A stretch of DNA of 64,000 nucleotides from Candidatus Bathyarchaeia archaeon. Lineage in GTDB: Archaea > Thermoproteota > Bathyarchaeia > TCS64. Every line of letters starts with the position of its first letter. Within the stretch, counting starts at the first letter, position 1. Positions 25,236-41,976 of this stretch are shown here, piece by piece. The DNA lies in contig JBEKDF010000009.1 in NCBI GenBank assembly GCA_050014495.1, positions 14,229 to 78,228 of the forward strand. The letters are read 5' to 3'. The notes beneath the pieces are model-generated. The model saw only the letters and a list, made by a program, of their open reading frames with translations. It was not told the DNA's origin and searched no databases. A program made the translations under genes and the position numbers.

Positions 25236-26105
25236 CTAGGCACGCTTATCGATCTTGACGCCCCCTCGGGGGCCTATCGTGGCCTTAGCATGGCGGAGAG
25301 CCCAGCAGCTTATGACTATGCCTACCGGGAGAGACGCAGGGTGCCTTGCAGCCAACTCTATATGGAGGTCGAGGGCGGTCGGCCCCTCACCGAGACCCAT
25401 TGCACCTATACCGAGTTCATTCACCTTACCCAGAAGCTCCTCCTCTATAGATGCTAGCTTTGGGTCTGGGTTCCTCACTTTGAATGGTTTTAGTAGCGCC
25501 TTCTTCGCGAGGAGCATGCATAGGTCCTCACTTCCGCCGATGCCGACCCCGATGAAGTAGGGTGGGCACCCCTGTGACCCAGCCGCAGCGACGGCCTCAA
25601 TCACGAACTGTTTGACGCCTTTCATCCCTAAGCCTGGTTTAAGCATTCGATGATTTGCGACATTGCTGCTCCCCCCACCCTTCGGCATGGCGATGAGCTC
25701 TAGTTCGTTGCCGGGGACCAATTCCCAGTTGATTATTGGTACGAAGGCGCCTGTGTTATCGTTTGTGTTTCCCTTAAGCATGTCCACTGCGTTGGGTCGG
25801 ATGGGGATCTCCTCGGTGGCCCGTCTAGTGGCTTTGACAAGTATCTCCTTGAGCTCAGATTTGAGTGGAAACTTGTCTCCCACCTTGACCATGAAGGCGA
25901 CGACGCCGGTATCTTGGCACATGGGCCAGCTATTCTTTCTTGCGAGTGAGGCGTCGTCCAGTATACTCTTGAGCTGAGCTTTCCCGGTTATACCCTTTGT
26001 ACCCTTCATGAGCCTCTCCATTTCCTTGATATATTCGACTGGAAGTTCGGTGGCAGCTATCCTGAGAAGCTCCACTGCTGTGTCTTCTACGATGATGTTA
26101 AGCAT
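25236..26105 (-). CDS. class I (Fe-S) fumarate hydratase / hydro-lyase, alpha subunit
   Basis: PMCQDTGVVAFMVKVG and GGGSSN are hallmarks of Fe-S hydro-lyase (FumA/TtdA) N-terminal domains. Confidence 0.85.
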   Translation of the reverse strand: MLNIIVEDTAVELLRIAATELPVEYIKEMERLMKGTKGITGKAQLKSILDDASLARKNSWPMCQDTGVVAFMVKVGDKFPLKSELKEILVKATRRATEEIPIRPNAVDMLKGNTNDNTGAFVPIINWELVPGNELELIAMPKGGGSSNVANHRMLKPGLGMKGVKQFVIEAVAAAGSQGCPPYFIGVGIGGSEDLCMLLAKKALLKPFKVRNPDPKLASIEEELLGKVNELGIGAMGLGEGPTALDLHIELAARHPASLPVGIVISCWALRHAKATIGPRGGVKIDKRA

Positions 26106-26714
26106 TCATTTCATCTCCGAGATGATCCTGTCCCTATTGGCGTTCACCTTCATGCCTACATCTTGAGTTAGATTACCACCGTGGGAATCTATAGCCACTA
26201 TAAGGGGTCCAAAGTTCTCTGTTTCATAGACCCAAAGGCACTCAGGCATGCCAAGCTCCTCCAACCAGAAGACATCTTTAACCTTCTTAATTCCCTTGGC
26301 TGCGAGTAGGGCAGCACCTCCCGTGAAGGCGGTATAGACGCAACCGAACTTTTGGCACGCCTTCGAGGTCCTCTCACCCATGCCACCCTTGCCGATTAGG
26401 ACTGCGGGTCGGAAGGCTTCTATAAATCTGTCCTCGAATAGTTCCATCCTTGTGCTAGTCGTGGGGCCAGCAGCTACTACCTCCCACTCCTTTCCTCTCT
26501 TCCTCATTATGGGACCGCAGTGGAAGACTCCTACTCCTTTAAAGTCTACAGGGGTCTTCTTCCCCTGCTCAAATAATTCAAGGGCCTTACTATGTGCCTC
26601 GTCCCGTGCGGTTATCACTATACCCGTGATGTAAATTATGTCCCCGATATTGAGCTTCCTAAGCTCCGCTTCAGGGACTGGTGTCTTGAGGTGATACTCC
26701 AAACCCCTTCTCAC
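26106..26714 (-). CDS. class I (Fe-S) fumarate hydratase / hydro-lyase, beta subunit
   Basis: ITGIVITARDEAHSKAL...GPTTSTRME...GKGGMG is typical of the beta (C-terminal) subunit. It abuts the alpha gene. Confidence 0.85.
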   Translation of the reverse strand: MRRGLEYHLKTPVPEAELRKLNIGDIIYITGIVITARDEAHSKALELFEQGKKTPVDFKGVGVFHCGPIMRKRGKEWEVVAAGPTTSTRMELFEDRFIEAFRPAVLIGKGGMGERTSKACQKFGCVYTAFTGGAALLAAKGIKKVKDVFWLEELGMPECLWVYETENFGPLIVAIDSHGGNLTQDVGMKVNANRDRIISEMK

Positions 26715-26986
26715 TCATTTGAACAGGTCTCAACAGCGATTTAAAACCTGAGGAATTCCATGTTAGACTGGACAAAATTACCGTGTGTTTTCATCTATAA
26801 TCTAAGTGGCGCTTAGAAAAAAAGTGAGTATTATCCTTGAATCACCCAAGGCTTCAAGAGATACTAAAGATCTCGTGCTACCCTAACAGTTAGCAGAACC
26901 CAAATTAATACCACATTTTCCAGAGGAAGCTGATCCCGGGCGTTTCTGAGAAAAGGTATAATATATACAGCGTTATAACTTCTGAG

Positions 26987-27406
26987 ATGTCTTCGGAAAA
27001 ACAGGGGTTCATTATCCACCCCTCCCCTGATAACAAGGTTTTTCGAGACCGGATTAAGGAGCTGAGCGGAGAAAAGGTCGAACTCTGCTTCCAATGCGGT
27101 GCCTGTAGCTCGGGATGTCCATTGACCCAGGAGATGGATTACCTCCCCAGCAAGGTGATTAGGCTGGTGCAGCTTGGCCTCGATGAAGCGCTGGACTCTA
27201 AGACCATATGGGTCTGCACGAGCTGCTTCAACTGCGAGGTCAGGTGTCCCCGCGGCATAGACATCGCCAACGTAATGGAGTCGCTCCGCCAACTAGTACT
27301 GAGGAAAAAGTACGATCGTGTGACCCTCGACCAGCTAAGTGACGAGCAATTGAAGGAGCTGCCCCAGGTCGCAATCATCAGTAGTCTGAGGAAACTAACT
27401 GCGTGA
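26987..27406 (+). CDS. hdrC: heterodisulfide reductase subunit C-like (2x[4Fe-4S])
   Basis: CFQCGACSSGCP and CTSCFNCEVRCP motifs. Confidence 0.8.
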   Translation: MSSEKQGFIIHPSPDNKVFRDRIKELSGEKVELCFQCGACSSGCPLTQEMDYLPSKVIRLVQLGLDEALDSKTIWVCTSCFNCEVRCPRGIDIANVMESLRQLVLRKKYDRVTLDQLSDEQLKELPQVAIISSLRKLTA

Positions 27407-27413
27407 TCAAGTC

Positions 27414-28307
27414 ATGAATGTTGCATACTATCCGGGCTGCACGTTGAAGACAACAGCTAAGGAGTTTGACATAAGTACGAGGGCCTCAGCCAAAGCGCTG
27501 GGCATTAACCTCGTGGAGCTCCCACGCTGGAACTGCTGCGGTACCGTCCATGCCCTCGCGAAGGATGACGTTATGCACCACCTAGCGCCTCTGAGAAATC
27601 TCCTCCGGGTTGAGGAGGCTCAACAGAGCGGCATAGTTGACGAAAAACGTGTCATTGCCCTGTGCGCGATGTGCTACAACACATTGAAGCGGAGCAACCA
27701 GGCCTTTAACGCCGATTCGGACAAAGCAGGGAAGGTCAAGGAGAGCATGAATAACGAGGCGAACGTCTACAGCGGACAGGTCGAGGTGGAGCACTTACTT
27801 GAGTTCCTTCGCACATATGGTTGGGACAAGGTACAGTCCCACGTCTCCAAGCCTCTGAACGGGTTGAAGGTTGCCCCATATTATGGATGCCTACTCTTAA
27901 GACCCCGAGGCATAGGAATAGACGACGCAGACAACCCACGTGTCTTCGAGGATCTGCTAAAGGCACTAGGAGCAGAAGTAATAGATTTTGGCTATAAACA
28001 GAAGTGCTGCGGCAGCTACCACACCGTCCACATGGTAGATGTGGTAGCAGATCTCAGTAACAGGATTCTGACGCAGGCTCAGTCTGCTGGCGCGGATCTT
28101 GTCGCCACAGCATGCCCACTATGCGAGTTCAACCTCGGCAACAGGCAGACTGAGGTAGCCAAGAAGTATTCTAAGTTCCAAGGTATTCCAATTGTTTATT
28201 TTACCCAGCTGATGGCTCTCGCCTTCGGCCTCGGGGAGGATGATACGGCGCTCGGGATGAATAAGCCCGACCCGAGGCCTTTGCTCAGGGAGAAAGGGTT
28301 GATTTAG
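27414..28307 (+). CDS. hdrB: heterodisulfide reductase subunit B-like (two CCG domains)
   Basis: YYPGCT...WNCCGT and YYGC...KCCGSY...CPLC. Confidence 0.85.
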   Translation: MNVAYYPGCTLKTTAKEFDISTRASAKALGINLVELPRWNCCGTVHALAKDDVMHHLAPLRNLLRVEEAQQSGIVDEKRVIALCAMCYNTLKRSNQAFNADSDKAGKVKESMNNEANVYSGQVEVEHLLEFLRTYGWDKVQSHVSKPLNGLKVAPYYGCLLLRPRGIGIDDADNPRVFEDLLKALGAEVIDFGYKQKCCGSYHTVHMVDVVADLSNRILTQAQSAGADLVATACPLCEFNLGNRQTEVAKKYSKFQGIPIVYFTQLMALAFGLGEDDTALGMNKPDPRPLLREKGLI

Positions 28308-28308
28308 A

Positions 28309-28998
28309 ATGACTGAGAACGGTAACAAGATGGTCACCATCTATGTGATGGGCAAGAAGCAGAAAGTACCTGCGGACCTAACTATTATGAAGGCTATGGA
28401 GTACGCTGGCCACCAGTTTAGGAGAGGTGCCGGTTGCAGGGGCGGCTTCTGTGGTGCTTGCGCAACTGTATACAGGAAGAAGGGGAGCTACAAGCTCCAG
28501 GGAGCTTTAGCCTGCCAGAAGATAGTCGAGGATGGGATGATTATAGCCCAAATACCATTCAGCCCACAAGAGAAGGTGACCTATAAGATCAACGAGCTAA
28601 AGGCTGAGGCGAACACCTTCCTCGAATATTACCCCGAGATCGCTAGGTGTCTAGCCTGCAACACGTGCACGAAGGCTTGTCCACAGGATATTATGGTTAT
28701 GGACTACGTCCAATCAGCTCTGCGCGGCGACGTCACCCAGGCCGCGAAGCTGAGCTTTGACTGCCTCGGATGCGGACTCTGCGCCATGAGGTGCCCCGCT
28801 GAGATCGTTCCCTACAATATTGGGCAATTAGCACGTCGCCTCGAGTCCAAGTATATCGAGGGACCCACCGAGCACGTCCTCAAGAGGTGCGAGGAGGTGA
28901 AAGAGGGTAAGTTCGACGCCGAGATCGAGGAGATGATGAAGATGGACAAGGCAACACTCTCTAAGAAGTACAATACGAGGGAGATGAAGATCAAATGA
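28309..28998 (+). CDS. SdhB/FrdB-like iron-sulfur subunit ([2Fe-2S] plus two [4Fe-4S]-type motifs)
   Basis: CRGGFCGACATV (2Fe-2S ferredoxin domain), CLACNTCTKACP and CLGCGLCAMRCP. Confidence 0.75.
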   Translation: MTENGNKMVTIYVMGKKQKVPADLTIMKAMEYAGHQFRRGAGCRGGFCGACATVYRKKGSYKLQGALACQKIVEDGMIIAQIPFSPQEKVTYKINELKAEANTFLEYYPEIARCLACNTCTKACPQDIMVMDYVQSALRGDVTQAAKLSFDCLGCGLCAMRCPAEIVPYNIGQLARRLESKYIEGPTEHVLKRCEEVKEGKFDAEIEEMMKMDKATLSKKYNTREMKIK

Positions 28999-30650
28999 GT
29001 GGCTACATTTCAGGCTACCCAGAGTATATGCAGGATTCCATCAGGAAAGTCGCCGAGAAGAGGGGCAGCAACCTCTCGTCACATGGCATCAATGCGATGA
29101 CAGCTGAGGAGAGGCAATCCATCCTCGAGCACTTTCACCCCGACTGGAAGCCCAACATGAAGCGTCCGATAGCCATGGGGCCGAGTAAAGGGATGATGGT
29201 CCCCAACGAGGTTGCGGATATCCTTGAGGCCCACCCACTCATAAAACCTAGTGACATAGACCTCAACCACATAGACTACGATGTCGAAGTTCTTATCATC
29301 GGAGCAGGTGGGGCAGGCTTAAGCGCTGCGCTACTTGCGCAGGAGAACGGAGTGCCCGTAGACCAGATACTAATGATCCAGAAACTCAGACTGGGAGACG
29401 CAAACTCGAAGATGAGCCAGGGGGGAATCCAGGCAGCCGACTCTTCAATTGACAGCCCCTCGATCCACTACTTGGATGTCATTGGTGGCGGTCACTATGC
29501 GAATAAGCCGGACTTAGTTGAGGCCCTCGTTAAGGATGCCCCCGATGTGATCAAATGGCACGAAGAACTAGGCGTGATGTACGATAAGAATCCCGATGGT
29601 TCTTTGCTCGAGATTGCAGGGGGCGGCACCAGCAGGAGGCGAATGCATAGCTGCAAGGACTACACTGGCTTGGAGATTACCCGTGTACTCGTGGACGAAT
29701 TCATTAACCGTGGAATAAGCAACATCGAATTTACGAGTGCAGTCGACTTCATAATGGATAGTAAGAACCAAGTCGCAGGGGCTGTCTTGTTCGATATGGA
29801 GACCGAGGAGTACCGTGTCGCGAGGGCTAAGTCGACGATTCTAGCAACTGGTGGCTTTGGCAGGTTGCACATCCAGGGTTTCGCGACGACGAATCATTAC
29901 GGTGCAACGGGCGACGGTATCGTCATGGCTTACCGCACAGGCGCAATTTTGAGGGATCTTGACTCAACACAGTACCACCCAACAGGCGCTGCTTACCCGG
30001 AGCAGATTGTTGGTCAGCTGGCCACGGAGAAACTCCGTGGTAGAGGCGCTCTCCCCGTCAATAAGAATGGCGAACTATTCGTCTACCACTTGGAACCACG
30101 TGATATCGAATCCTCAAGCTACATCAGGGAGTGCTACGAGAGGGATAACGGGATAATTACTCCGACAGGGATGCGTGCTGTCTGGCTCGACACACCGATG
30201 ATCGAGATAGTAACGGGTCCAGGCACAATCGAGCGCGAGTTCGCCGCTATGTTCCGTAACTTCAAAAAATTCGGCATAGATATCAGAAAGGAGCCTATAC
30301 TTGTCTTCCCCACTCTTCACTACCAGAATGGTGGAGTTGAGATTAATCCCAACACCGAGACCAGTGTCCCCGGACTATTCTGCGCTGGTGAGGTCTGCGG
30401 TGGTGTACACGGTAAAAACAGGCTCATGGGAAACAGTCAACTAGACCTCTATGTCTTCGGACGTAGAGCGGGTAAGGCAGCTGCGGAGCACGCTAAGAAT
30501 GCTTCCGTGGGCAAGCTCACCCTCGCTCACTTAGACCGCTATGAAAGGTGGCTCGCGAAGGCTGGTGTCAAAACGGATCGGAAATCCCCGATCCTTCTCC
30601 CCGAGTACAGGGGAAAGAAGACGCTCGAACATAAATTGAACATACTGTAG
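28995..30650 (+). CDS. SdhA/FrdA/TfrA-family flavoprotein (soluble fumarate-reductase-like)
   Basis: IIGAGGAGLSAAL, MSQGGIQAA, YHPTG, LRGRGA, HYQNGGV and NRLMGNSQLDLYVFGRRAG. The covalent-FAD histidine position reads N, which points to non-covalent FAD. An N-terminal extension of about 95 aa is present. Confidence 0.8.
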   Translation: MSGYISGYPEYMQDSIRKVAEKRGSNLSSHGINAMTAEERQSILEHFHPDWKPNMKRPIAMGPSKGMMVPNEVADILEAHPLIKPSDIDLNHIDYDVEVLIIGAGGAGLSAALLAQENGVPVDQILMIQKLRLGDANSKMSQGGIQAADSSIDSPSIHYLDVIGGGHYANKPDLVEALVKDAPDVIKWHEELGVMYDKNPDGSLLEIAGGGTSRRRMHSCKDYTGLEITRVLVDEFINRGISNIEFTSAVDFIMDSKNQVAGAVLFDMETEEYRVARAKSTILATGGFGRLHIQGFATTNHYGATGDGIVMAYRTGAILRDLDSTQYHPTGAAYPEQIVGQLATEKLRGRGALPVNKNGELFVYHLEPRDIESSSYIRECYERDNGIITPTGMRAVWLDTPMIEIVTGPGTIEREFAAMFRNFKKFGIDIRKEPILVFPTLHYQNGGVEINPNTETSVPGLFCAGEVCGGVHGKNRLMGNSQLDLYVFGRRAGKAAAEHAKNASVGKLTLAHLDRYERWLAKAGVKTDRKSPILLPEYRGKKTLEHKLNIL

Positions 30651-30658
30651 GGATCTGA

Positions 30659-33019
30659 ATGACTGAAACACCTAGAATCGGCGTCTGGCTCTGCGAGTGT
30701 GGTGGGAATATAGGCGACGTAGTCGAGACTGATCGCGTCGTCGAGGAGCTCAAGTCCGAAGCTGCCTTCGTGAAGAAGGAGAGATACCTCTGCAGTAAAC
30801 CGAGCGTTGACGCAATCAAGGAGGCTGTCGAGAAGCAGCACCTGGACAGAGTAGTCCTCGCCTGCTGTACACCTAAGATGCATAGGGAGACATTTCTGAG
30901 TAACCTCGCGGAGAAGGGAGTCAACCCCGCCTTCTTGGAGATGGTAAATGTCCGTGAGCAGTGCAGCTGGGTCCATAAAGAAGACCACGAGGGTGCGACT
31001 CTGAAGACTTTAGACCTTATTAGGGGTGCGGTGGCGCGGGCAAAGGAGTCTGTGGCACTGGAGTCGAAGAGGATGAAGGTTATCCCCGAGGCCCTCGTAA
31101 TCGGAGGAGGCGTCGCAGGTATCACTACAAGCCTTCGCCTCAGCGAGTTCGGCATGAATGTGCATCTCGTTGAGAAACGTCCCAGTATCGGTGGCCACAT
31201 GATCCAATACCCGAAGGTCTTCCCGACGCTCGATTGTAGCCAATGCATACTTACACCGAAGATGGCGTCAGTAAGCCAGAGCAGGAACATTGACTTAATC
31301 ACATATGCTGAAGTTGAGGAGGTCTCTGGTATCCCCGGTGATTTCAAGGCTAAGATAAGACTCAACCCACGGGGCGTAGATGTATCAAAGTGCATCGGGT
31401 GCGGTGCCTGTAGTAGGGTCTGCCCGACGAAGGTGCCCGCTGAACACGACCAAGACCTTGGCGTCAGGAAGGCGGCATATATACCCTTCCCACAGAGTGT
31501 TCCCAGCGTCTATACCATCGACTTCGAGCACTGTATCCACTGCGGGGCCTGCGCGAAGGTTTGCCCACGGCAATGTATTGATCTTGACGATACCGGTTCC
31601 TCTAAGGAGCTGAAGGTGGGTGCCATTGTGATGGCAACTGGATTCGAGCTCTACGATCTCTCTGGGCTCATACAGTATGGCTACGGACGTTACCCAAACG
31701 TTGTGACTAGCCTCGAGATGGAGAGGATACTTGACGTCAACGGGCCGACGGGGAGCCAACTCATCGTCCCGAAGACCGGTAGGCAGGTTAAGACCGTGAC
31801 TTTCGTCCTCTGCGCCGGAAGTAGAGACACTGAGGTAGGACGCAGTTACTGTAGTAGAGTCTGCTGCCTTTACAGTATGAAGCAGGCCCAGCTCCTGAGA
31901 GACCGTGGCGTCGACGTTTGGATTCACTATATAGATATCAGGTCACCAGGTCGTCGCTACGAGGAGTTCTACAGGACTACACAGGAGAAGGGCGCGATGT
32001 TTGTGAAGGGGAAGGTGGCTGAGATTGTCCCAGACGGGGAGCAGGTGCTCGTGCGCAGCGAGGACATGATGCTTAATAAGATGCTTGAGTATTCGAGCGA
32101 CCTTGTTGTCCTGGCTCCACCGATGGTAACGACCCCTGAGACCCTGAAGCTCGCTGAGATGCTGCGTGTGCCTGTTGATGAGGATCAGTTTGTATTGGAG
32201 AGGCATCCGAAGCTCGACCCGGTGTCCACGAAGAGAGACGGAATCTTCGCGGCAGGCACGGTTGTTGGTCCAAAGGATATCCAGTCAACAACGGCGGAGG
32301 CGGAGGGGGCGGCGATGAAGGTGGTTAACTTCCTCCATGTGGACAGGGTCATCGAACCTAACAAGGTGTTCCTTGCACACCCGGAGCTGTGCGATGGTTG
32401 TGCTAAGTGTGTGGGTTCTTGCCCCGAGTCTGCGATTACCCTCTCAGATGGGAAAGCGTTGGTGAACGAGATAATGTGCACGGGCTGTGGTGCCTGTGTG
32501 CCATCTTGTCCTAGGAATGCCTTGGATCAGCAAGGCTTGAGTGAGACTCAGATCAAGGCTCAGATAAGAGGGGCCCTCGAGGGATCGAAAGCTGAGCTTA
32601 AGATACTCACATTCGTCGAGAAGGAGGTAGCGTACACAGCGGTCGACCTCGCCGGGCTGGCGAGGCTACCCTACCCAAGCAGCATCAGGATCATCCCGAT
32701 GCCCTCACTTGCGAGGCTGAAGCTGGAGCACCTACTCCAAGCCTTCGCCTACGGGGCGGATGGGGTGATGCTTCTCGAGGCACCATCTCATGAAGGTCCA
32801 TATGGTCATGCTCATGTGCTGGCGGAGGAGAGAGCCGATGAGTACAGGTGGGCACTTGAGGATCATGGCGTGGATAGTAGTAGGATGTGGTTCAGCAGGG
32901 TCTATGTTCCCGACTGGAGGAAGCTAGAGAGGGTCTTCAAGACCTTCAACGACATCATTGCTGGGGAGGGCCCGATAGGAGAAGATGCTAGGAAAAAGCT
33001 CCGCGAGGAGCTCCAATAA
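30659..33019 (+). CDS. hdrA: HdrA-type flavoprotein with C-terminal cysteine-less MvhD-like domain
   Basis: N-domain IGVWLCECGGNIG...LACCTP...VNVREQCSWVH. FAD fold VIGGGVAGITTSL, plus YCSRVCC. Four CxxCxxCxxxCP ferredoxin motifs. The C-terminus AYTAVDLAG...YGADGVMLL is homologous to MvhD. Confidence 0.8.
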   Translation: MTETPRIGVWLCECGGNIGDVVETDRVVEELKSEAAFVKKERYLCSKPSVDAIKEAVEKQHLDRVVLACCTPKMHRETFLSNLAEKGVNPAFLEMVNVREQCSWVHKEDHEGATLKTLDLIRGAVARAKESVALESKRMKVIPEALVIGGGVAGITTSLRLSEFGMNVHLVEKRPSIGGHMIQYPKVFPTLDCSQCILTPKMASVSQSRNIDLITYAEVEEVSGIPGDFKAKIRLNPRGVDVSKCIGCGACSRVCPTKVPAEHDQDLGVRKAAYIPFPQSVPSVYTIDFEHCIHCGACAKVCPRQCIDLDDTGSSKELKVGAIVMATGFELYDLSGLIQYGYGRYPNVVTSLEMERILDVNGPTGSQLIVPKTGRQVKTVTFVLCAGSRDTEVGRSYCSRVCCLYSMKQAQLLRDRGVDVWIHYIDIRSPGRRYEEFYRTTQEKGAMFVKGKVAEIVPDGEQVLVRSEDMMLNKMLEYSSDLVVLAPPMVTTPETLKLAEMLRVPVDEDQFVLERHPKLDPVSTKRDGIFAAGTVVGPKDIQSTTAEAEGAAMKVVNFLHVDRVIEPNKVFLAHPELCDGCAKCVGSCPESAITLSDGKALVNEIMCTGCGACVPSCPRNALDQQGLSETQIKAQIRGALEGSKAELKILTFVEKEVAYTAVDLAGLARLPYPSSIRIIPMPSLARLKLEHLLQAFAYGADGVMLLEAPSHEGPYGHAHVLAEERADEYRWALEDHGVDSSRMWFSRVYVPDWRKLERVFKTFNDIIAGEGPIGEDARKKLREELQ

Positions 33020-33152: not shown

Positions 33153-33926
33153 TTAGGCGTGGCTTAAGAAGTCCTTTCGCCCACCGTCAACAACTAGAAC
33201 CTGCCCTGTGACGAAGCTAGACTCATCAGAGGCAAGGAAAAGAACCGCATTTGCGATGTCCTGAGGTTCCCCAATACGCCTCATTGCTGCCATTCCCGCC
33301 TTTAGCTTCTGCAGCTCCTCTGTTTTCTCTCTAGTCGAACGACTTGTCATATCTGTGCGCGTCCATCCAGGCGCCACACTGTTCACGTTGATACCGTGGG
33401 GGCCGAGATCCTGTGCAGCGACCGTCGTCATCGCTATTAGGGCGGCTTTGGCGCAACAATAGGCGAGTTCCCCAACTGGGGCACCTCCGAGCCCTGAGAT
33501 GCTAGAGATATTAATTATTTTGCCCGACTTCTGCTCCACCATCATCTTCGATGCTATCTGGGTGCAGTTAAATGGGCCCTTGAAATTTACAGCGATGACT
33601 CTATCCCAATCTTCTTCGGAGGTATCAAGTGTTGTCCCGCCAGTGCCTATTCCTGCGTTATTTACCAGAATATCCACCCTCCCGAACTCGGCCAGGACCT
33701 TGTTAAACATTCTCTGAGCCTCTGTCCTCTTAGATACGTCGGCTTTGACGGCGATAGCTCTCCTCCCCATTGCCTTTATATTTTTAACAACTTCTTTCGC
33801 GTCATTTACGGACTTTACATAGTTCACGACGATGTCCGCCCCCTCTCGGGCGAATGTCTCTGCGATTGCTTTACCTATCCCACGGGAAGCACCCGTGATA
33901 ACTGCTACCTTTCCATCGAGCTTCAT
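33153..33926 (-). CDS. short-chain dehydrogenase/reductase (FabG-like)
   Basis: VAVITGASRGIGKAIA, NNAG and YCCAKAAL (the YxxxK motif). Confidence 0.85.
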   Translation of the reverse strand: MKLDGKVAVITGASRGIGKAIAETFAREGADIVVNYVKSVNDAKEVVKNIKAMGRRAIAVKADVSKRTEAQRMFNKVLAEFGRVDILVNNAGIGTGGTTLDTSEEDWDRVIAVNFKGPFNCTQIASKMMVEQKSGKIINISSISGLGGAPVGELAYCCAKAALIAMTTVAAQDLGPHGINVNSVAPGWTRTDMTSRSTREKTEELQKLKAGMAAMRRIGEPQDIANAVLFLASDESSFVTGQVLVVDGGRKDFLSHA

Positions 33927-33967
33927 GGTGCAGACTCGCCACAGTGGGAGATTAAACTTTCCAGAAT

Positions 33968-34447
33968 CTATTGAGTAGCCTTTATCGCGTCTGCAAAAGT
34001 CTTTAGTTTCTCTTTATAATCCCCTATCTCGACTTCCGTCTCCTTTATCTCTAATGTTACAATGGGTGCGCCCGTGATTTTGGCCATATTCTCGAAGGTT
34101 GATCCTGGTGAACTCTGGTAAGTACAGAAGTATGCTACATTGCGGATCTTACTCTTTGCCTGAATCAGGTAGCTTCGTATGGGGCTCGCCATGTTCCAAG
34201 CCCAAATAGGCGTACCAATGACAACGACATCGTAGTAGGATGGGTCCATTTTTAGCGCTTCTATTACGGGAGTTGCTCCGCTCATCGCCTCCCTCCCCGA
34301 GGTCAGCCACCCCATAGGTCCTGCACGACTCTTTGCTTCAGTAATAGCCTCTATATCAGCGGAAAGCAGAGTACTAAGCTCATCAGCGAGCTTTTTCGTC
34401 GTCCCTGTTCGGGAGAAGTATGTGATAAGAGTCTTCATGAGATCCAC
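33968..34447 (-). CDS. flavodoxin-family protein
   Basis: MKTLITYFSRTGTTKKLA is an FMN phosphate-binding loop. 159 aa. Confidence 0.7.
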   Translation of the reverse strand: MDLMKTLITYFSRTGTTKKLADELSTLLSADIEAITEAKSRAGPMGWLTSGREAMSGATPVIEALKMDPSYYDVVVIGTPIWAWNMASPIRSYLIQAKSKIRNVAYFCTYQSSPGSTFENMAKITGAPIVTLEIKETEVEIGDYKEKLKTFADAIKATQ

Positions 34448-34654: not shown

Positions 34655-36013
34655 ATGTATCCCTATTTACCTATGCCAGTCACAAAGGAAGAGCTTCTCA
34701 AGGAAGCCCAGAAGTGGAGTAAGATCGCTCCACCCTACCATGCCTTCTACCACGGAAAGGTCGAGGTCATGCCCAAATGCGCTATTAGGACCCTACAGGA
34801 CTTCAGCATCTGGTACACCCCTGGTGTAGCCCAGGTTTGCAAGGACATAGAGAAGGACAAGGAGCTTGCCTTCGAGGGGACGAGCAAGTGGAACTATGTC
34901 GCCGTCGTCAGCGACGGCACAAGAGTACTCGGACTCGGCGATATCGGCGCCCAGGCCGGAATGCCCGTGATGGAGGGCAAGGCTCTTATCTTCAAGTATC
35001 TGGGCGGAGTCGATGCCTTTCCCATATGCCTTAGCACAAAGGACCCGGAGGAGATAATTCAGGCTGTTAAGTGGATAGAGCCAACCTTCGGCGGGATTAA
35101 CCTTGAGGATTTCTCGAGCCCCAAATGCTTCTACATCCTAGAGAGACTCAGGAAGGAGATGCCCATCCCCGTCTGGCACGATGACCAGCAGGGTACCGCA
35201 GCGGTGATACTTGCCGCTACCTATAACGCATTAAAGATGGTGGGTAAGAAACTCAACACCGCGAAGATAAGTATAGTCGGCGTCGGAGCGGCTAATACTC
35301 GTACCTACTATGTCCTCAAGTCAGCGGGGGCAAACCCGAAGAACATCCTCATGGCTGACTCCACTGGTATCCTCAGCCGGACTAGGAAGGACCTTGAGGG
35401 CAGCTACAAATGGGAAATTGCTAAGGAGACCAACCCAGACGGCTTGGAGGGTGGTATTAAGGAGGCCCTCGAAGGAGCCGACATCCTTATCGCTGCTAGT
35501 AAGTCTGGCCCAGACGTCATTAAGAAGGAGGACATAAAGGGAATGGCATCGAACGCCATAGTATTCGCCTGCGCTAACCCCATTCCGGAGATCTGGCCAT
35601 GGGAGGCTTCGGAGGGTGGTGCAAAGGTCGTTGCAACAGGGCGCAGCGACTTCCCTAACCAGGTAAACAACAGCCTCGTCTTCCCCGCTATATTCCGCGG
35701 AGCACTCGATGTCCGAGCCAAGACGATAACCGACGAGATGTGCATAGCCTCAGCTACGGCCCTCGCCAAGTTCGCCGAGGATAAGGGACTTACTGAGAAA
35801 TATATAATTCCCAGCATGGATGAGTGGGAGATCTATCCCCTTCAGGCTACCGAGGTAGCGTTGAAGTGCATAGAGCAGGGCCTTGCACGCAAGAAAGCTA
35901 GTAGGGCAGAGATTTACGACGGTGCAGCCGCCATAATCGAAAGGACGCAGAAGATCGTGAAACTACTGATGGCGCAGGGCTTTATTCCTTCTCCGCCCCC
36001 TGAGCCTAAGTGA
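34655..36013 (+). CDS. NAD(P)-dependent malic enzyme
   Basis: [43 protein letters not shown] and VGVGAA. The start is placed at an ATG (34655, or 34673) instead of the TTG at 34607. Confidence 0.85.
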
Positions 36014-36059: not shown

Positions 36060-36953
36060 CTAGATTCTGTTCAGCCTCTTGAGAAGCGGGGTAACATCCA
36101 CTCTCCTTAAGTCCAGACCTAATTCCTCGGGCTTCACACCCATGGAGAGACCGAGGACATCGACAAAGTGTATAACTGGTATACCATATTCCTTTCCCTT
36201 CGATTCCTTGAGCTTGATCTGCCCGACTTCAAGCTGCATCATGCAAAAGGGACACGTCGCCACGATCGCGTCCGCCCCAGACTCTTTCACGTCGTCGAGG
36301 ATGGTCTCAGCAAGCTTGAGCCCTGCTTCCTCCGACACCTTCCCGAAGAAGGAGCCACACCCGATGCAGCACGCTGTCTTCTCATGGTAATCTATGCTTG
36401 TCGCCCCAGTCGACTCGATAAGTCTGTCGAGTTTCTGAGGGAACTCCGCGTCGTCGAAGCCTGAATACCTCTGAGGGAGGAAGAGGTGACAACCGTAGAA
36501 GGGAGCGGCTCTCAGACCGGTTAGGGGCTTTACACTAAGTTCCCTCAGCCCATCGGGGCTATAGTCCTTGTAGAGGGACGTAACAACGTGCTCTATCCTT
36601 ACTTTTCCCTTATACTCTCTCCCCACTTCCCCCAGTAATTTATTCACATCCTCCTTTATCTCGGGGTTGTGATCTAGAAGGTACTTTGCCCTCGAGAGGT
36701 TTCCGAAGCAGCTGGAGCAGAGGGTCATTAGGGGAAGGTCTTCCTGCTCTGCTATGGCGAGGTTCCTACTGGTGAGTGCCAACCCCCTCTCGTAATCCAC
36801 GCTGTGGACGAGGCAAGCAGGCATGCAGCAGTTGAAGTCATCCCTCTGACGAAGATTCACGTCGAGCCTCTTGAAGACCGCCCTCATTGCCATTTCGTAG
36901 CCGAGTTCCCTAACCGATGCGACGCATCCAGGAAATAGTAGGTACTCTGTCAA
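36060..36953 (-). CDS. hdrB: HdrB-like CCG-domain protein
   Basis: FPGC...FNCCMPA and FYGC...ACCIGCGSF...CPFC. Confidence 0.85.
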   Translation of the reverse strand: MTEYLLFPGCVASVRELGYEMAMRAVFKRLDVNLRQRDDFNCCMPACLVHSVDYERGLALTSRNLAIAEQEDLPLMTLCSSCFGNLSRAKYLLDHNPEIKEDVNKLLGEVGREYKGKVRIEHVVTSLYKDYSPDGLRELSVKPLTGLRAAPFYGCHLFLPQRYSGFDDAEFPQKLDRLIESTGATSIDYHEKTACCIGCGSFFGKVSEEAGLKLAETILDDVKESGADAIVATCPFCMMQLEVGQIKLKESKGKEYGIPVIHFVDVLGLSMGVKPEELGLDLRRVDVTPLLKRLNRI

Positions 36954-37432
36954 GCGTCCAATCTCCTGAGAAGATCTTCGCCAAATATCTTCCTCTGCTC
37001 TTCTATCGCCTTCGGAGAGATCGTAGCCCCTATGGGAGGTAACCCATATTCACCCCTCCACTCGTCGAAGTCGTTCGGAACCGAAACCGACCGCCCTGAC
37101 CTCATTATCTCACGCATGATCGCCTTAGGATTCTCGGGTATTCTGCCCTCTTTTGACGCAAGGTTCCTCGTCAGGAGGAATATCTCGGTGGGCTGGATCC
37201 CCTGTGGGCACCTCTCAGTACACCGGTAACACCATGCACACAGCCACAGTTCCTCGCTCTTCAGAAGCTCAGGTAGGTTTTGGGAGACCCTCTGAAGGAG
37301 CCTCCTTGGGTTATACATCCCAGGCAGCGCCTTCGCCATGGGGCAACTCCCCGTGCAGCTACCGCAGTCTTGGCAGTAGCTCAGCTTCTTTTCGTCTAAA
37401 AGACGAGCGAGCAGATCCTTTGTATTAACCAT
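36950..37432 (-). CDS. hdrC: HdrC-like 2x[4Fe-4S] protein
   Basis: CQDCGSCTGSCP and CAWCYRCTERCP. 4-nt overlap with the downstream hdrB. Confidence 0.8.
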   Translation of the reverse strand: MVNTKDLLARLLDEKKLSYCQDCGSCTGSCPMAKALPGMYNPRRLLQRVSQNLPELLKSEELWLCAWCYRCTERCPQGIQPTEIFLLTRNLASKEGRIPENPKAIMREIMRSGRSVSVPNDFDEWRGEYGLPPIGATISPKAIEEQRKIFGEDLLRRLDA

Positions 37433-37661
37433 GTTATCCGATCCAGAAACCGGTCTATCTCAATCCAGTAATTACAGTATATTAAATATTTACTTCAAGT
37501 GTGGATGGATGCCGTTTACTCAACTATTAATGAGTTTTCTCTGAGGTTACGGGACCATTAGATATCAATAAAGGGTATATACTGGCGTTAGAAAGGGTAG
37601 TGGAATAGCTCCCCTTGAGAAGCAGCTAGAGGCGTGTTTGTTGACTCAAAGAAAACCCAAG

Positions 37662-38120
37662 ATGATGGATAAGGTGAACGCGGAGACCTGTGATCAGTGT
37701 GGTAAATGCCCGTCATCGTGCCCGGTCACAGTACGCATCGAGGGCTTCAATCCTCGCCAGATCATTGCGAAGGTCGCCTTGGGTAAAGAGGCTGAGCTGA
37801 TGAAGAGCCAGGTTTTATGGACCTGCACTAGCTGTCTCAAATGTAAGGAGCGTTGCCCTGAGGAGATCTCCCCTTACGACGTTATACTAGCTCTGCGCCG
37901 TATAGCTATCAATCTGGAGTTACCTCACCCTGAGGGATACGACGAGTCAGTGAAAGCCGTGGTTGAAACTGGCGTCGTTCAGCAACCTCAGCTTGTTCGA
38001 ACTCGTAACAAGGAGAGGAAGGATAGGAAGTCTATGGGACTTCCACCTGCGGAGAAGCCAAGGGACATGACTATGTACACCAAGACTCTCCGAGGCATTC
38101 TTGAGGAAGATGAACTTTGA
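37662..38120 (+). CDS. hdrC: HdrC-like 2x[4Fe-4S] protein
   Basis: CDQCGKCPSSCP and CTSCLKCKERCP. ATG at 37662 is preferred over TTG at 37638. Confidence 0.8.
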   Translation: MMDKVNAETCDQCGKCPSSCPVTVRIEGFNPRQIIAKVALGKEAELMKSQVLWTCTSCLKCKERCPEEISPYDVILALRRIAINLELPHPEGYDESVKAVVETGVVQQPQLVRTRNKERKDRKSMGLPPAEKPRDMTMYTKTLRGILEEDEL

Positions 38121-38995
38121 AGTACGCTCTCTATTTGGGGTGTACTGTCCAGACCGAACAGTACGGATACGAGGCCTCTGTGAGGGCGACTATGCCTAGG
38201 CTGGACGTAGAACTCGTGGGCATGGTCGGGGTAAGTTGTTGTGGGTTCCCACCATTTAGTAGTGTCAATGAATTAGCCTGGTTGTACTCATCTGCTAGGA
38301 ATATTGCTATAGCCGAGGAGATGGGCCTCCCACTACTAACCTTATGCAACGGTTGCCATCTCTCTTTCACGGAGACTATACACAAGCTGGGGAACTCCCC
38401 AGAATTGAAGGTGAAGGTTAATGAGAAACTTGCCGGAGAGGGACTTAGATATGATGGTAAGGTTAAACTCGTTCATATCTTTGAGCTCTTACACGATGAA
38501 GTTGGGAAAGATAAGATCACGGCCGCTTTAACGAATCCCTTGAAGGGATTCAGGTTCGCAGCGCAGCCGGGCTGCCACTCTATAAGGCCAAGCAGAGTCG
38601 GTAGACCTGACAACCCTGAGAACCCGAAGAAGCTTGATGAACTCATAACCTGGCTCGGGGCTGAGGCCGGTGACTACCCTGAGAAAAACGACTGCTGCGG
38701 CAGCTCTCTAGCAGTATCAGCCGGGAAGGTCGTCCTCGATATAGCTGGGGAGAAACTCAAAGCAGTCAAACGCCGCGGCTTCGACGGCCTTGTAACGACC
38801 TGCCCATTCTGTTTCAAAGTCTACGACAACAAGCAGCGAGCCATCCAGGCGATGGGGGGCAAGGAGATAGATATGCCCGTCTTCTACTATACTCAGTTAC
38901 TCGGCCTCGCCATTGGCCTTAAACAGGAGGAGTTGGGAATCGATCTAAATCAGAGCCCGGTCGACGAGTTGCTCATAAGGATAGGAGGAGCATAG
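38117..38995 (+). CDS. hdrB: HdrB-like CCG-domain protein
   Basis: YLGCT...VSCCGFP and QPGC...DCCGSS...CPFC. Confidence 0.85.
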   Translation: MKYALYLGCTVQTEQYGYEASVRATMPRLDVELVGMVGVSCCGFPPFSSVNELAWLYSSARNIAIAEEMGLPLLTLCNGCHLSFTETIHKLGNSPELKVKVNEKLAGEGLRYDGKVKLVHIFELLHDEVGKDKITAALTNPLKGFRFAAQPGCHSIRPSRVGRPDNPENPKKLDELITWLGAEAGDYPEKNDCCGSSLAVSAGKVVLDIAGEKLKAVKRRGFDGLVTTCPFCFKVYDNKQRAIQAMGGKEIDMPVFYYTQLLGLAIGLKQEELGIDLNQSPVDELLIRIGGA

Positions 38996-38996
38996 G

Positions 38997-41974: not shown

Positions 41975-41976
41975 AT

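Follow-up and report, generated by a model that had tools for sequence, protein, structure and literature searches.

Organization of the locus

The window analyzed here is a stretch of 64,000 nt of the Bathyarchaeia contig JBEKDF010000009.1 (GCA_050014495.1), positions 14,229 to 78,228. Five genes of the same strand (26987–33019) follow each other in the order hdrC, hdrB, Fe-S subunit gene, flavoprotein gene and hdrA, as listed in Table 1. The intergenic gaps are 7, 1, −4 and 8 nt, the negative one being an ATGA overlap. The set is divergent from fumAB and a malic enzyme gene is located downstream of it. All open reading frames of this tight co-directional arrangement, which was described in the original prediction, were confirmed. 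Domain assignments made from the sequences of fumAB and the five genes are far beyond chance; both fumarase subunits pass the cut-offs of their families (fumA, NF004885, 299 bits at a cut-off of 276; fumB, TIGR00723, 213 bits at a cut-off of 145).

Table 1. Features of the locus, with positions in the window.
Feature	Position	Strand	Evidence
fumA, alpha subunit of two-subunit class I Fe-S fumarate hydratase	25236-26105	-	PF05681 (Fumerase), 3e-87
fumB, fumarate hydratase beta subunit	26106-26714	-	PF05683 (Fumerase_C), 4e-44
Divergent intergenic region fumB/hdrC, 272 bp	26715-26986		Sequence read directly
hdrC	26987-27406	+	HdrC-type dicluster, TIGR03290, 84 bits
hdrB	27414-28307	+	PF02754 (CCG domain), two copies
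Reductase Fe-S subunit gene	28309-28998	+	Fer2, Fer2_4 and Fer4 matches; 4Fe-4S dicluster
Flavoprotein gene, product of 551 aa	28995-30650	+	PF00890 (FAD_binding_2), 1e-70
hdrA with fused MvhD-like domain	30659-33019	+	HdrA2 model end to end, 811 bits
Malic enzyme gene	34607 or 34655 to 36013	+	PF00390 and PF03949
Second HdrCB pair, just downstream	36060-37432	opposite to the five-gene set	
Large Mvh/Hdr operon, just downstream	37638-52249		
ArgH-like lyase gene	52252-53757	-	ORF confirmed; 19 kb from the cluster

The divergent intergenic region harbors two A/T-rich TATA-like elements, one at ~26957–26967 (~25 nt ahead of the hdrC ATG) and another at ~26740–26746 (~29 nt ahead of the fumB start). 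Judging by the geometry of archaeal promoters, both are candidate promoters.

The malic enzyme is a pathway neighbor of the cluster, as it provides malate from pyruvate and CO2. An ArgH-like lyase had been named along with it as a nearby gene; both genes are present, but the lyase gene is 19 kb away and its presence is not a conserved feature of the cluster. The second HdrCB pair and the large Mvh/Hdr operon were overlooked at that time, as were the absence of a C-terminal domain from the flavoprotein and the loss of cysteines from the MvhD-like domain (see below). A flavodoxin gene is found just downstream of hdrA, and a flavodoxin fragment occurs in a related Bathyarchaeia locus (L002). The window also encodes a GcvH-like protein and a lipoate ligase, located 18 kb downstream and adjoining the other Mvh/Hdr genes.

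The Hdr subunits

HdrC contains two [4Fe-4S] motifs (C34/37/40/44 and C77/80/83/87) and matches TIGR03290 with 84 bits versus 40 bits for TfrB. In HdrB both CCG motifs predicted earlier are complete, with all ten cysteines in place (C9, C40, C41, C84, C87 and C159, C198, C199, C234, C237), and the protein is predicted to hold two non-cubane [4Fe-4S] sites. It aligns end to end with the solved HdrB 7bkb_B (137 bits) with all 10 Cys kept. HdrB and HdrC score ~2–4 times higher on genuine HdrB/HdrC models than on TfrB. HdrB groups with HdrBs linked to fumarate reductase genes in other phyla (39–64% identity), which form a clade of their own, and not with the three other HdrB paralogues of the window, to which its identity is 29–31%.

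The HdrA part (aa 1–640) has the full bifurcating-type architecture. In agreement with the claim of a full HdrA, it is covered by the HdrA2 model and aligns with the solved HdrA 8rvu_a over aa 3–641 (617 bits) with every Cys motif kept. HdrA, HdrB and HdrC all stay below the respective NCBIfam equivalog cut-offs. The fused MvhD-like domain (aa ~649–767, nt ~32603–32959; FlpD domain, 5e-24) contains no cysteines at all: E, V, S, A and G stand where MvhD proteins have their five conserved Cys. The same five residues are found in those Bathyarchaeia loci whose fused HdrA is complete (L001–L003, L015), and stand-alone MvhDs retain the conserved Cys. The fused domain is degenerate.

The reductase module

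The N-terminal [2Fe-2S] domain of the Fe-S subunit contains C43, C48, C51 and C69. The two complete CxxCxxCxxxCP motifs that accompany it imply two [4Fe-4S] clusters and not a 3Fe-4S one. The subunit is colinear with the TfrB N-terminus and SdhB, the matches being weak (33 and 21 bits, respectively). A natural fusion of the Fe-S subunit to the flavoprotein also exists (P0122).

The flavoprotein is built of an N-terminal extension, an FAD domain and a capping domain; the C-terminal SdhA/FrdA domain is absent (no PF02910 match in the domain search). The extension of ~95 aa, already recognized in the original prediction, occupies aa 1–95 and is kept in homologues down to 41% identity. Asn137 occupies the position of FrdA His44, the covalent-FAD histidine, which was likewise stated correctly, and the FAD is predicted to be bound non-covalently. 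All the fumarate-binding and catalytic residues of FrdA are kept: H328, T344, E345, R348, R369, H442 and R476 correspond to FrdA H232, T244, E245, R248, R287, H355 and R390. The AF2 model (pLDDT 74.6, pTM 0.81) has E. coli FrdA 1kf6 as its best structural match (E 9e-29).

Among NCBIfam models the flavoprotein scores best with TfrA (318 bits at a cut-off of 718); the sdhA/frdA and nadB scores are 271 and 270 bits, and no family cut-off is reached. The phylogenetic placement puts it in a clade separate from all characterized enzymes and from a true TfrA (P0184, 765 bits), which has the C-terminal domain and lacks the N-terminal extension. On these grounds a TfrA orthologue was rejected. The protein is predicted to be a fumarate reductase of the SdhA/FrdA superfamily belonging to a distinct N-extended clade. 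It can hardly be an enzyme acting on L-aspartate or another unsaturated or dicarboxylic acid, in spite of the nearly equal nadB and sdhA/frdA scores and its isolated clade, since Gly209 replaces the L-aspartate oxidase marker Glu121 of NadB, the dicarboxylate-binding residues are all kept, and adjacency to fumarase and malic enzyme recurs in several phyla.

The locus was originally described as a split thiol:fumarate reductase with an appended HdrA. This descent is not supported: the low TfrA score, the genuine HdrB and HdrC matches and the Frd-linked HdrB clade indicate that the unit is HdrABC plus a distinct two-subunit reductase and not a fissioned TfrB. The functional part of the same proposal, a fumarate reductase wired to HdrA, is well supported.

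Distribution and gene neighborhoods

The survey covered eighty related loci, spread over more than 20 phyla of bacteria and archaea; 62 of these loci are informative (at least 7 kb of flank). The Fe-S gene is directly 5' of the flavoprotein gene in 74 of the 80. Co-occurrence of the five genes is recurrent: HdrA is found near the pair in 54 of the 62 informative loci, and complete HdrABC in 46. Among these 46, an Flx-like NAD(P)H module is present in 29 and MvhAG in 10, which leaves 7 with neither. Gene order varies widely, with more than ten different arrangements, and 2-oxoacid:ferredoxin oxidoreductase (OFOR), fumarase and malic enzyme are frequent neighbors, the last adjoining the pair in several bacterial phyla. 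In Acetothermia (L021), for example, the order is HdrA-MvhD-MvhG-MvhA-HdrC-HdrB-FeS-Flavo-OFORab-FumAB-malic enzyme. Within Bathyarchaeia the cluster is kept with fumAB and malic enzyme (flavoprotein identity 72–81%); fumA remains divergent in L002–L005 and L015–L017, and malic enzyme is immediately 3' of hdrA in L001, L003–L005 and L015. The partnership of the reductase pair with Hdr genes is widespread in anaerobes.

Three loci (L026, L039, L044) have HdrA-MvhD-Flx-FeS-Flavo without HdrBC; judging by gene content, the reductase itself may fill the high-potential branch there. No Hdr gene is located near the pair in six of the 62 informative loci, and five of the six are also devoid of a donor module; one example is a Dehalococcoidia locus with fumarase and malic enzyme only. 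In marine Gammaproteobacteria the module is paired with a NuoF-like protein. The Hdr-free and NuoF-paired loci mean that the module can work without Hdr.

Possible mechanism

Comparative genomics gives good support to the prediction that a cytoplasmic fumarate reductase is connected to HdrA and that fumarate is the high-potential acceptor of a bifurcating complex, the evidence being the fumarate-site residues and the recurrent linkage to HdrABC, donor modules, OFOR, fumarase and malic enzyme. With somewhat more confidence than doubt we propose that the five proteins form one cytoplasmic complex, in which an anchor-free fumarate reductase linked to HdrABC serves as the high-potential branch of HdrA bifurcation. 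The module lacking a membrane anchor (Fe-S subunit and flavoprotein with non-covalent FAD) would be wired to complete HdrABC, and an electron pair would be split at the HdrA flavin. The exergonic electron would pass via HdrC, the non-cubane clusters of HdrB, the two [4Fe-4S] and one [2Fe-2S] clusters of the Fe-S subunit and FAD to fumarate, and the endergonic one from the HdrA flavin to ferredoxin or possibly flavodoxin. For transfer from HdrB non-cubane clusters to another Fe-S protein, TfrB and SdhE offer no more than analogies. Fumarate would thus take the role held by CoM-S-S-CoB in methanogens. With fumarase and malic enzyme encoded next to it, the complex would complete a reductive branch from pyruvate via malate and fumarate to succinate, which may serve for disposal of reductant and regeneration of low-potential ferredoxin.

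The E0' of fumarate is about +33 mV (PMC5861303). According to our calculation with this value, the bifurcation donor must have E' of ~−208 mV or lower; H2, NADH, F420H2 and formate all qualify. In most other lineages the donor appears to be set by MvhAG (H2) or Flx-like proteins (NAD(P)H) via a Cys-bearing MvhD. A donor module is absent from the five-gene operon of the window, and the MvhD domain encoded there is Cys-free, so one leg of the bifurcation scheme is missing here. For HdrA of the HdrA2 type, F420H2 or NAD(P)H has been reported to pass a hydride straight to the flavin, and such transfer is our best guess for the Bathyarchaeia operon.

The same gap would not matter if HdrA, HdrC and HdrB were a mere Fe-S/flavin wire from reduced ferredoxin (or flavodoxin) to the reductase, since a non-bifurcating oxidoreductase needs no third substrate. 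Such a wire fits the absence of a donor module and of cluster ligands in the MvhD domain, the seven of 62 informative loci with HdrABC and neither Mvh nor Flx nearby, and the flavodoxin gene 3' of hdrA together with the fragment in L002. We nevertheless consider it unlikely: ~480 mV would be wasted, a mid-potential donor module accompanies 39 of the 46 full HdrABC sets, and HdrA keeps its complete bifurcation-type architecture.

Slightly less probable still are two enzymes sharing a free thiol/disulfide couple, like TfrAB and HdrABC of methanogens. HdrB or its second copy would oxidize a dithiol for the reductase and HdrABC would re-reduce the disulfide, the carrier being either a small thiol or a protein (DsrC or lipoyl-GcvH, for example). 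The complete CCG active-site motifs of HdrB are compatible with this, although the ten cysteines are required anyway as cluster ligands for a relay. A DsrC-mediated route was listed as an alternative by Rubin-Blum et al. 2019 (PMC6315080), and SdhA, HdrA2B2C2 and GcvH are co-located according to the Culexarchaeia paper. The GcvH-like and lipoate ligase genes of the window would also fit. However, GcvH occurs near the reductase pair in only 2 of the 80 loci (~7 kb off, on the opposite strand), no carrier gene was seen to recur among the surveyed clusters, and HdrBC is absent altogether from L026, L039 and L044.

Running in reverse, the complex would couple oxidation of succinate and reduced ferredoxin (confurcation) to formation of H2, NAD(P)H or F420H2 as a step in the oxidation of glutamate or 2-oxoglutarate to pyruvate. 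OFOR, fumarase and decarboxylating malic enzyme, which are often nearby, would suit this route. The confurcating option of the original prediction is nonetheless improbable on thermodynamic grounds: the calculated mean of succinate (+33 mV) and ferredoxin (~−450 mV) is ~−208 mV, which is not negative enough to reduce NAD+, F420 or protons unless H2 is below ~1e-7 atm. Non-covalent FAD is typical of fumarate-reducing rather than succinate-oxidizing enzymes, which Asn137 fits, and the NuoF-linked gammaproteobacterial relatives would work in the direction of fumarate reduction only.

Comparison with known systems

Over their full length, HdrA, HdrB and HdrC are homologous to the subunits of methanogen MvhAGD-HdrABC, the H2:CoM-S-S-CoB,ferredoxin oxidoreductase (5odc, 8rvu; ~640 aa aligned at 617 bits for HdrA), and they keep every cluster ligand; related Frd-linked clusters of other phyla also carry MvhAGD. 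The window differs in the additional reductase module, in MvhD being fused and devoid of [2Fe-2S] ligands, and in the unmet equivalog cut-offs; CoM or CoB metabolism is not expected in this organism. With Methanothermobacter TfrAB the proposed complex shares a cytoplasmic location, non-covalent FAD and the flavoprotein, 2Fe-2S, 4Fe-4S and CCG modules, but its CCG and dicluster proteins are HdrB/HdrC orthologues and not pieces of TfrB.

Relatives from gut Clostridia, Aminicenantes and Treponema resemble Desulfovibrio FlxABCD-HdrABC, having HdrBCA-MvhD(FlxD) and three Flx-like genes directly 5' of the reductase pair, while Flx genes are absent from the window. The Desulfovibrio system is an NADH dehydrogenase/heterodisulfide reductase (Ramos et al. 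2015, as cited in PMC6315080), and the role of acceptor is ascribed there to DsrC instead of fumarate. Another soluble multi-subunit fumarate reductase in a reductive TCA context is the purified five-subunit NADH-dependent enzyme of Hydrogenobacter thermophilus (Miura et al. 2008; summarized in PMC13147460); in contrast to the proposed complex, it is not known to reduce ferredoxin.

The closest precedent is the HdrABC-FlxABCD-KorABCD-'TfrAB' complex proposed for tubeworm symbionts and Chromatiaceae (Rubin-Blum, Dubilier & Kleiner 2019, PMC6315080; Mitchell et al. 2024, PMC11636981), in which a two-subunit anchor-less fumarate reductase is likewise encoded with HdrABC. The hypothesis that HdrA bifurcation uses fumarate as its exergonic acceptor was put forward there, with co-expression evidence, although the expression pattern of Endoriftia 'tfrAB' deviated from the rest of the cluster. 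The published symbiont 'TfrA' probably belongs to the N-extended clade of the window flavoprotein. The symbiont order, with kor between hdrA and hdrBC, is shared by Gallionella MAGs (L047, L049). Relatives of the flavoprotein of the Gallionella loci include Thiodictyon (Chromatiaceae).

The window differs from the symbiont clusters by the lack of the Flx NADH module and Kor genes, another gene order, an archaeal host and the fusion of HdrA to a Cys-free MvhD domain. The original view that the arrangement had not been characterized thus holds for its biochemistry only. As the arrangement and the bifurcation idea have already been published for gammaproteobacterial tubeworm symbionts, what the window adds is a new archaeal variant.

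Organization of the operon and its Hdr and Fe-S subunits

The five genes of the operon follow one another on the plus strand with gaps of 7, 1, −4 and 8 nt, which indicates a single transcription unit. They are divergent from fumAB, coding for a two-subunit class I fumarate hydratase whose alpha subunit scores above the equivalog cut-off in a profile search. The spacer harbors two A/T-rich TATA-like elements located ~25–29 nt 5' of each of the divergent start codons, which we infer to be leaderless archaeal promoters. The original prediction described the same arrangement of the operon and fumAB, and its coordinates match the ORF map exactly.

Features of the operon and of its surroundings (window coordinates)
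Feature	Position	Strand	Basis or remark
High-GC stretch	4001-8000		GC 0.57, raised relative to the flanks; AT skew strongly positive, 0.20-0.27
Unannotated ORF	5133-7049		638 aa, inside the high-GC stretch
tRNA-Gln (TTG)	11006-11081		sole RNA gene in the window
NrdD, anaerobic ribonucleotide reductase	17135-19396		consistent with a strict anaerobe
fumA	25236-26105	-	ORF map
fumB	26106-26714	-	ORF map
Divergent spacer, fumB to hdrC			272 bp
hdrC	26987-27406	+	two CxxCxxCxxxCP motifs
hdrB	27414-28307	+	two CCG motifs, ten Cys
Fe-S gene	28309-28998	+	[2Fe-2S] motif and two four-Cys motifs
Flavoprotein gene	28995-30650	+	ORF map
hdrA	30659-33019	+	alignment to solved HdrA
SDR oxidoreductase and short flavodoxin (Flavodoxin_4)	33153-34447	-	convergent on the hdrA end
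Hdr island	36060-52249		~16 kb, directly 3' of the operon
Second HdrB/HdrC pair	36060-37432	-	in the Hdr island
Separate Mvh/Hdr operon	37638-49985	+	in the Hdr island
GcvH-like lipoyl carrier (185 aa) and lipoate-protein ligase	50588-52249		end of the Mvh/Hdr operon
Oxidoreductase and hydrolase genes	55322-61236		two nitroreductase-family proteins, luciferase-like (possibly F420-type) oxidoreductase, amidohydrolase, beta-lactamase-fold peptidase, aldo/keto reductase

HdrC and HdrB score about 2–4 times higher on the genuine Hdr models (84 and ~160 bits) than on the TfrB model (40 and 42 bits), and a solved HdrB aligns with HdrB of the window end to end. The motifs of HdrB (both CCG motifs, 10 Cys) and of HdrC (two [4Fe-4S] motifs) are those of a bifurcating HdrABC. 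Residues 3–641 of HdrA align with bifurcating HdrA of known structure (617 bits for 8rvu_a and 597 bits for 5odc_A) with every cluster motif kept: the FAD site, the N-terminal cluster, the inserted and C-terminal ferredoxin domains and the CxGSRD...CSRVCC cluster are all present. None of the three subunits reaches its NCBIfam equivalog cut-off (HdrA 811 vs 1100 bits for the HdrA2 model and 677 vs 1300 for another, HdrB ~160 vs 345, HdrC 84 vs 160).

The [2Fe-2S] motif of the Fe-S protein is formed by C43, C48, C51 and C69 and is accompanied by two motifs of four Cys each. The protein therefore probably carries, judging by these motifs, one [2Fe-2S] and two [4Fe-4S] clusters and not the 2Fe/4Fe/3Fe set of SdhB. 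A search for a close relative of this subunit among solved structures found none.

Active site and affiliation of the flavoprotein

Alignment of the flavoprotein to E. coli FrdA, SdhA and NadB places Asn137 at the position of the covalent-FAD histidine. The residues H328, T344, E345, R348, R369, H442 and R476 correspond to FrdA H232, T244, E245, R248, R287, H355 and R390, respectively. These sites are occupied by H, E and R in all members of a 13-sequence set of flavoproteins with the N-terminal extension (N-extended flavoproteins), and either Thr or Ser stands at the T244 site. The counterparts of FrdA H355 and R390 were assigned by counting on HMMER and MAFFT alignments; both are conserved, which rules out a loss of the substrate ligands.

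L-Aspartate oxidase is an unlikely identity for the flavoprotein, since its score of 270 bits is below the NadB cut-off (453, TIGR00551) and Gly209 occupies the position of NadB Glu121, which we take to be the residue of the E. coli enzyme that binds the substrate amino group and marks L-aspartate oxidase. This position is Gly, Ala or Ser elsewhere in the clade and Phe in FrdA, SdhA and TfrA. A "TGLE" stretch does not correspond to the Glu121 site of NadB.

The N-terminal extension of ~95 aa is conserved, and neither it nor the C-terminal tail has a Pfam match. The polypeptide ends ~45 residues past the FAD domain with no match to PF02910, so that the C-terminal SdhA/FrdA domain is absent. The AF2 model computed from a diversified alignment (pLDDT 74.6, pTM 0.81) has E. 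coli FrdA as its top structural match; a model from a shallow alignment of Bathyarchaeia only gave a pLDDT of 56.9 and was set aside.

In a crude neighbor-joining tree of 105 representatives, computed with no support values, the flavoprotein branches together with its N-extended relatives and with short flavoproteins of ~400 aa. This branch is separate from the NadB clade, from the covalent-His Sdh/Frd clades and from the clade that contains a bona fide TfrA, the protein P0184 (765 bits). Among full-length homologues at 72–93% identity, the named ones belong to Candidatus Bathyarchaeota/Bathyarchaeia. The NCBIfam scores (TfrA 318, sdhA/frdA 271 and nadB 270 bits) all lie below the respective cut-offs. 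Taken with the separate branching and the fumarate-site residues, they place the flavoprotein, as far as its sequence tells, in a distinct subfamily with a fumarate-type active site and no characterized member, and not among TfrA orthologues. The clade is marked by its N-terminal extension, by an Asn in place of the FAD histidine, by a Gly where NadB has its Glu and by the missing C-terminal domain.

Conservation of the gene set

One genome per species was scanned, which gave 597 relatives, and the best 80 loci were taken; their neighboring genes were found by searching the proteins of the window against all ORFs of these loci. In the best 80 loci the flavoprotein has 52–72% identity and is near full length including the N-terminal extension. 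The archaeal loci belong to Bathyarchaeia, Theionarchaea, Thermoplasmatota, Heimdallarchaeota and Desulfurococcales. The bacterial ones belong to lineages represented mainly by MAGs (WOR-3, Acetothermia/Bipolaricaulota, Chloroflexota, Cloacimonadota, Aminicenantes, Fermentibacteria, Fibrobacterota and Neomarinimicrobiota) and also to Spirochaetes, Gallionella MAGs, a deltaproteobacterium, many gut Clostridia and Phascolarctobacterium.

In 74 of these 80 loci the Fe-S gene immediately precedes that of the flavoprotein. For 62 of them at least 7 kb of flank is available, and in these informative loci the co-occurrence proposed in the original prediction is borne out: HdrA is encoded on the flavoprotein strand in 54 and HdrA, HdrB and HdrC together in 46. 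The HdrABC loci include an MvhG/MvhA [NiFe] hydrogenase in 10 of the 46 cases and a Flx-like NAD(P)H module in 29, the latter consisting by Pfam of three genes (FAD_binding_6/NAD_binding_1/DHODB Fe-S, Fer4_22 and a dicluster protein). A 2-oxoacid:ferredoxin oxidoreductase (OFOR) adjoins in ~20 loci of the survey, and fumarase and/or malic enzyme in ~17.

More than 10 distinct gene orders occur. In Bathyarchaeia the arrangement of fumBA divergent from hdrC-hdrB-FeS-flavoprotein-hdrA recurs at 72–81% flavoprotein identity, often with malic enzyme after it. A metagenomic contig (L012, 62% identity) has the order OFOR-HdrA-MvhD-HdrC-HdrB-FeS-flavoprotein, and an Acetothermia locus the order HdrA-MvhD-MvhG-MvhA-HdrC-HdrB-FeS-flavoprotein-OFOR-FumAB-malic enzyme. 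The Bathyarchaeial locus L001 (CP070640.1) was rejected as a case without hdrCB: a run of N at ~9460–9700 occupies exactly the place where hdrCB and the 5' end of the Fe-S gene would be expected, so that the cluster only looks truncated in this "complete" assembly and the locus is uninformative.

In the protein P0122 (727 aa; L013 5250-7433, GCA_054283745.1) the Fe-S subunit, with its 2Fe-2S and dicluster parts, is naturally fused to an N-extended flavoprotein. HdrB of the operon has 39–64% identity to the HdrBs encoded with the FeS-flavoprotein pair in other phyla and 29–31% to the three HdrB paralogues of its own window, and the reductase-linked HdrBs form one clade (neighbor-joining, no bootstrap). 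In view of this and of the recurrent linkage, HdrABC, the Fe-S protein and the flavoprotein behave as one co-evolving functional unit. According to the survey, Hdr and the reductase are partners in more than 20 phyla, and H2 and NAD(P)H modules are swapped between lineages.

The reductase is also found with other partners. Two contigs from marine Gammaproteobacteria metagenomes (L006 and L007 6366-9891) contain a three-gene operon of the Fe-S protein, the flavoprotein (45% identity for the pair, N-terminal extension kept) and a NuoF-like NADH-binding subunit (Complex1_51K, 418 aa), which looks like a soluble NADH:fumarate reductase with a different input module. In Prochlorococcus sp. MIT 1201 (L008 7001-9357, CP138947.1) the flavoprotein (43% identity) is followed by the Fe-S subunit, with neither an Hdr nor a NuoF partner nearby; the pair is unexpected there and was possibly acquired horizontally. 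Some Dehalococcoidia have the pair with fumarase and malic enzyme only. Three loci from Eubacteriales and Aminicenantes MAGs (L026, L039, L044) share the order OFOR-HdrA-MvhD-Flx-like x3-FeS-flavoprotein and contain neither HdrB nor HdrC in the 9 kb to each side. HdrBC thus seem dispensable in some lineages, and these loci suggest that the reductase itself can replace them on the high-potential side of HdrA.

The end of hdrA is faced by convergent SDR and flavodoxin genes. A flavodoxin fragment is found at the same site only in the locus L002, and more distant Bathyarchaeia lack it. The short flavodoxin of the window could serve as another low-potential acceptor. GcvH is close to the reductase in 2 of the best 80 loci, and conservation with the cluster in related loci was found for none of GcvH, LplA, the SDR gene and ArgH. 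For this reason ArgH, named in the original prediction as a nearby source of fumarate, was dropped from that role.

Electron entry into the proposed Bathyarchaeial complex

In bifurcating HdrABC, MvhD with its [2Fe-2S] ligands is the point where electrons enter from a hydrogenase or dehydrogenase. The C-terminal ~145 residues of HdrA form an MvhD/FlpD domain (5e-24), but contain zero Cys. Five Cys columns are kept in the stand-alone MvhDs, among them the two of the window and those of the reductase-Hdr clusters of other phyla; the same columns are E, V, S, A and G in the window domain and in the Bathyarchaeial loci L001, L002, L003 and L015. The five-gene operon has neither a mid-potential donor module (MvhAG or FlxABC) nor a Cys-containing MvhD, MvhAG and the intact MvhDs of the window being confined to the separate operon. 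The canonical electron entry is therefore missing.

The plus-strand operon of the Hdr island codes for HdrC, HdrB, two HdrA-like proteins (435 and 557 aa), MvhD (255 aa), a 1005-aa double HdrA-like protein, MvhD (143 aa), HdrC, HdrB, the [NiFe] hydrogenase subunits MvhG and MvhA and a HycI protease. The GcvH-like carrier and the ligase beside these genes recall the sHdr-LbpA systems of sulfur oxidizers, and the carrier gene also recalls the co-location of SdhA, HdrA2B2C2 and GcvH in Culexarchaeia. One of the Hdr complexes of the window might use a lipoyl protein as its dithiol/disulfide substrate.

Hydride may be donated by F420H2 or NAD(P)H straight to the HdrA flavin. The top NCBIfam model for HdrA is of the HdrA2 type, for which dependence on F420H2 has reportedly been observed; the luciferase-like oxidoreductase of the window gives at best a faint indication that F420 is used. 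A dithiol entering at HdrB is another possibility, and a plain path from ferredoxin to fumarate a further one. Tentatively, the Bathyarchaeial five-gene form could be a self-contained bifurcating fumarate reductase lacking a donor module, in which F420H2 or NAD(P)H delivers hydride to the HdrA flavin or a low-potential dithiol reacts at HdrB, with the Cys-free MvhD domain as a structural adaptor only; we regard this reading as rather doubtful.

Proposed mechanism and energetics

Across the survey loci HdrA and the reductase are constant and the H2 or NAD(P)H donor module is variable. With the frequent presence of OFOR, this is the signature expected of flavin-based bifurcation. A mid-potential donor module would feed electrons via MvhD; the exergonic reaction would be the reduction of fumarate and the endergonic one that of ferredoxin. 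We infer that the subunits associate physically, that electrons pass from HdrB to the Fe-S subunit and that bifurcation itself takes place.

With a fumarate/succinate potential of +33 mV (PMC5861303) and ferredoxin near −450 mV, a donor at or below about −208 mV is calculated to suffice, that is H2, NADH, F420H2 or formate. In reverse, with succinate and reduced ferredoxin as substrates and H2 or NAD(P)H as products, the reaction is unfavorable unless product levels are extremely low, and the non-covalent FAD fits the reductase direction. Both points favor a reductive branch, in which pyruvate would be converted via malate and fumarate to succinate and reduced ferredoxin regenerated alongside. 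Where Kor is present, this ferredoxin could feed 2-oxoglutarate synthesis.

Comparison with known systems

The original prediction regarded the gene set as a split thiol:fumarate reductase (TfrAB) with HdrA appended. This framing does not hold. The 318 bits of the flavoprotein compare with a TfrA cut-off of 718 (NF004900) and cover model positions 6–411 of 546 only, with PF02910 absent, and its clade is apart from that of P0184. TfrB is a single polypeptide with 2Fe-2S, dicluster and two CCG domains (NF004898, cut-off 385), whereas the window has three proteins, which score 33 (Fe-S protein), 40 (HdrC) and 42 bits (HdrB) on this model. The electron donors of TfrAB are CoM-SH and CoB-SH. Quinone-linked complex II (SdhAB/FrdAB) shares the fumarate/succinate active-site residues with the flavoprotein, but differs in its covalent FAD histidine, in its membrane anchor or SdhE/F, for which the operon has no anchor gene, and in the 3Fe-4S cluster of its B subunit, the third Cys motif of the window Fe-S protein having four Cys. 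The functional part of the prediction, a soluble fumarate reductase tied to HdrA bifurcation, is judged right in view of the linkage in the survey and the fumarate-site residues.

The closest published proposal concerns tubeworm symbionts and Thioflavicoccus, where korABCD and "tfrAB" are interspersed with flxABCD-hdrABC (Rubin-Blum et al. 2019, PMC6315080). In the proposed HdrABC-FlxABCD-KorABCD-TfrAB complex, NADH electrons bifurcate to Kor/ferredoxin and, directly or via DsrC, to fumarate reductase (PMC6315080). In Endoriftia the cluster is co-expressed, with a differing pattern for tfrAB (Mitchell et al. 2024, PMC11636981). In the Gallionella loci the genes are arranged much as in the symbionts, and Chromatiaceae are among the relatives of their flavoprotein; the published "TfrA" therefore very probably belongs to the N-extended clade. 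The window operon has the N-extended FeS-flavoprotein pair with HdrA, HdrB and HdrC in common with this Hdr-Flx/Mvh-Kor-Frd system, but not the donor module and Cys-containing MvhD in the cluster. A 2026 survey repeats the idea of fumarate reductase/Hdr bifurcation, and the Culexarchaeia paper describes SdhA adjoining HdrA2B2C2 and GcvH.

The novelty seen in the original prediction is thus reduced: the idea is already published for the symbionts, and this is not a categorically new system. Literature searches found no biochemical characterization of any Hdr-linked soluble fumarate reductase, no work joining thiol:fumarate reductase with HdrA and electron bifurcation, and none naming a bifurcating fumarate reductase. 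New from the window is the archaeal variant with a degenerate MvhD domain and no donor module; the definition of the flavoprotein clade and the breadth of the partnership, with more than 20 phyla and swappable H2 and NAD(P)H modules, are also new here.

Biological implications

HdrABC genes are frequently found in anaerobes that do not produce CoM-S-S-CoB, and a study of termite-gut Bathyarchaeia called it unclear which disulfide Hdr reduces in one genome of this kind. If fumarate is the exergonic acceptor, these proteins would add a further class of flavin-based bifurcating enzymes, and low-potential ferredoxin would be made while the reductive TCA branch runs. If the reading of the five-gene form as a self-contained bifurcating reductase is correct, it would be the first case of an enzyme for which fumarate is shown to be the high-potential acceptor in flavin-based bifurcation, and the "orphan" HdrABC found in abundant sediment archaea lacking CoM and CoB would gain a role. 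The hypothesis is directly testable in isolate assemblies (a Lachnospiraceae isolate, L090) and in cultured relatives known from the literature such as Thioflavicoccus; because the prediction can be tested in cultured gut bacteria, its interest for bioenergetics is moderate to high. The survey finds the system in sediment archaea (Bathyarchaeia, Thermoplasmatota, Theionarchaea, Heimdallarchaeota), in many candidate bacterial phyla and in numerous gut Clostridia. It may bear on how fermenters of the subsurface and the gut balance their energy, on the formation of succinate in the gut and on how efficiently the reductive TCA cycle fixes carbon.
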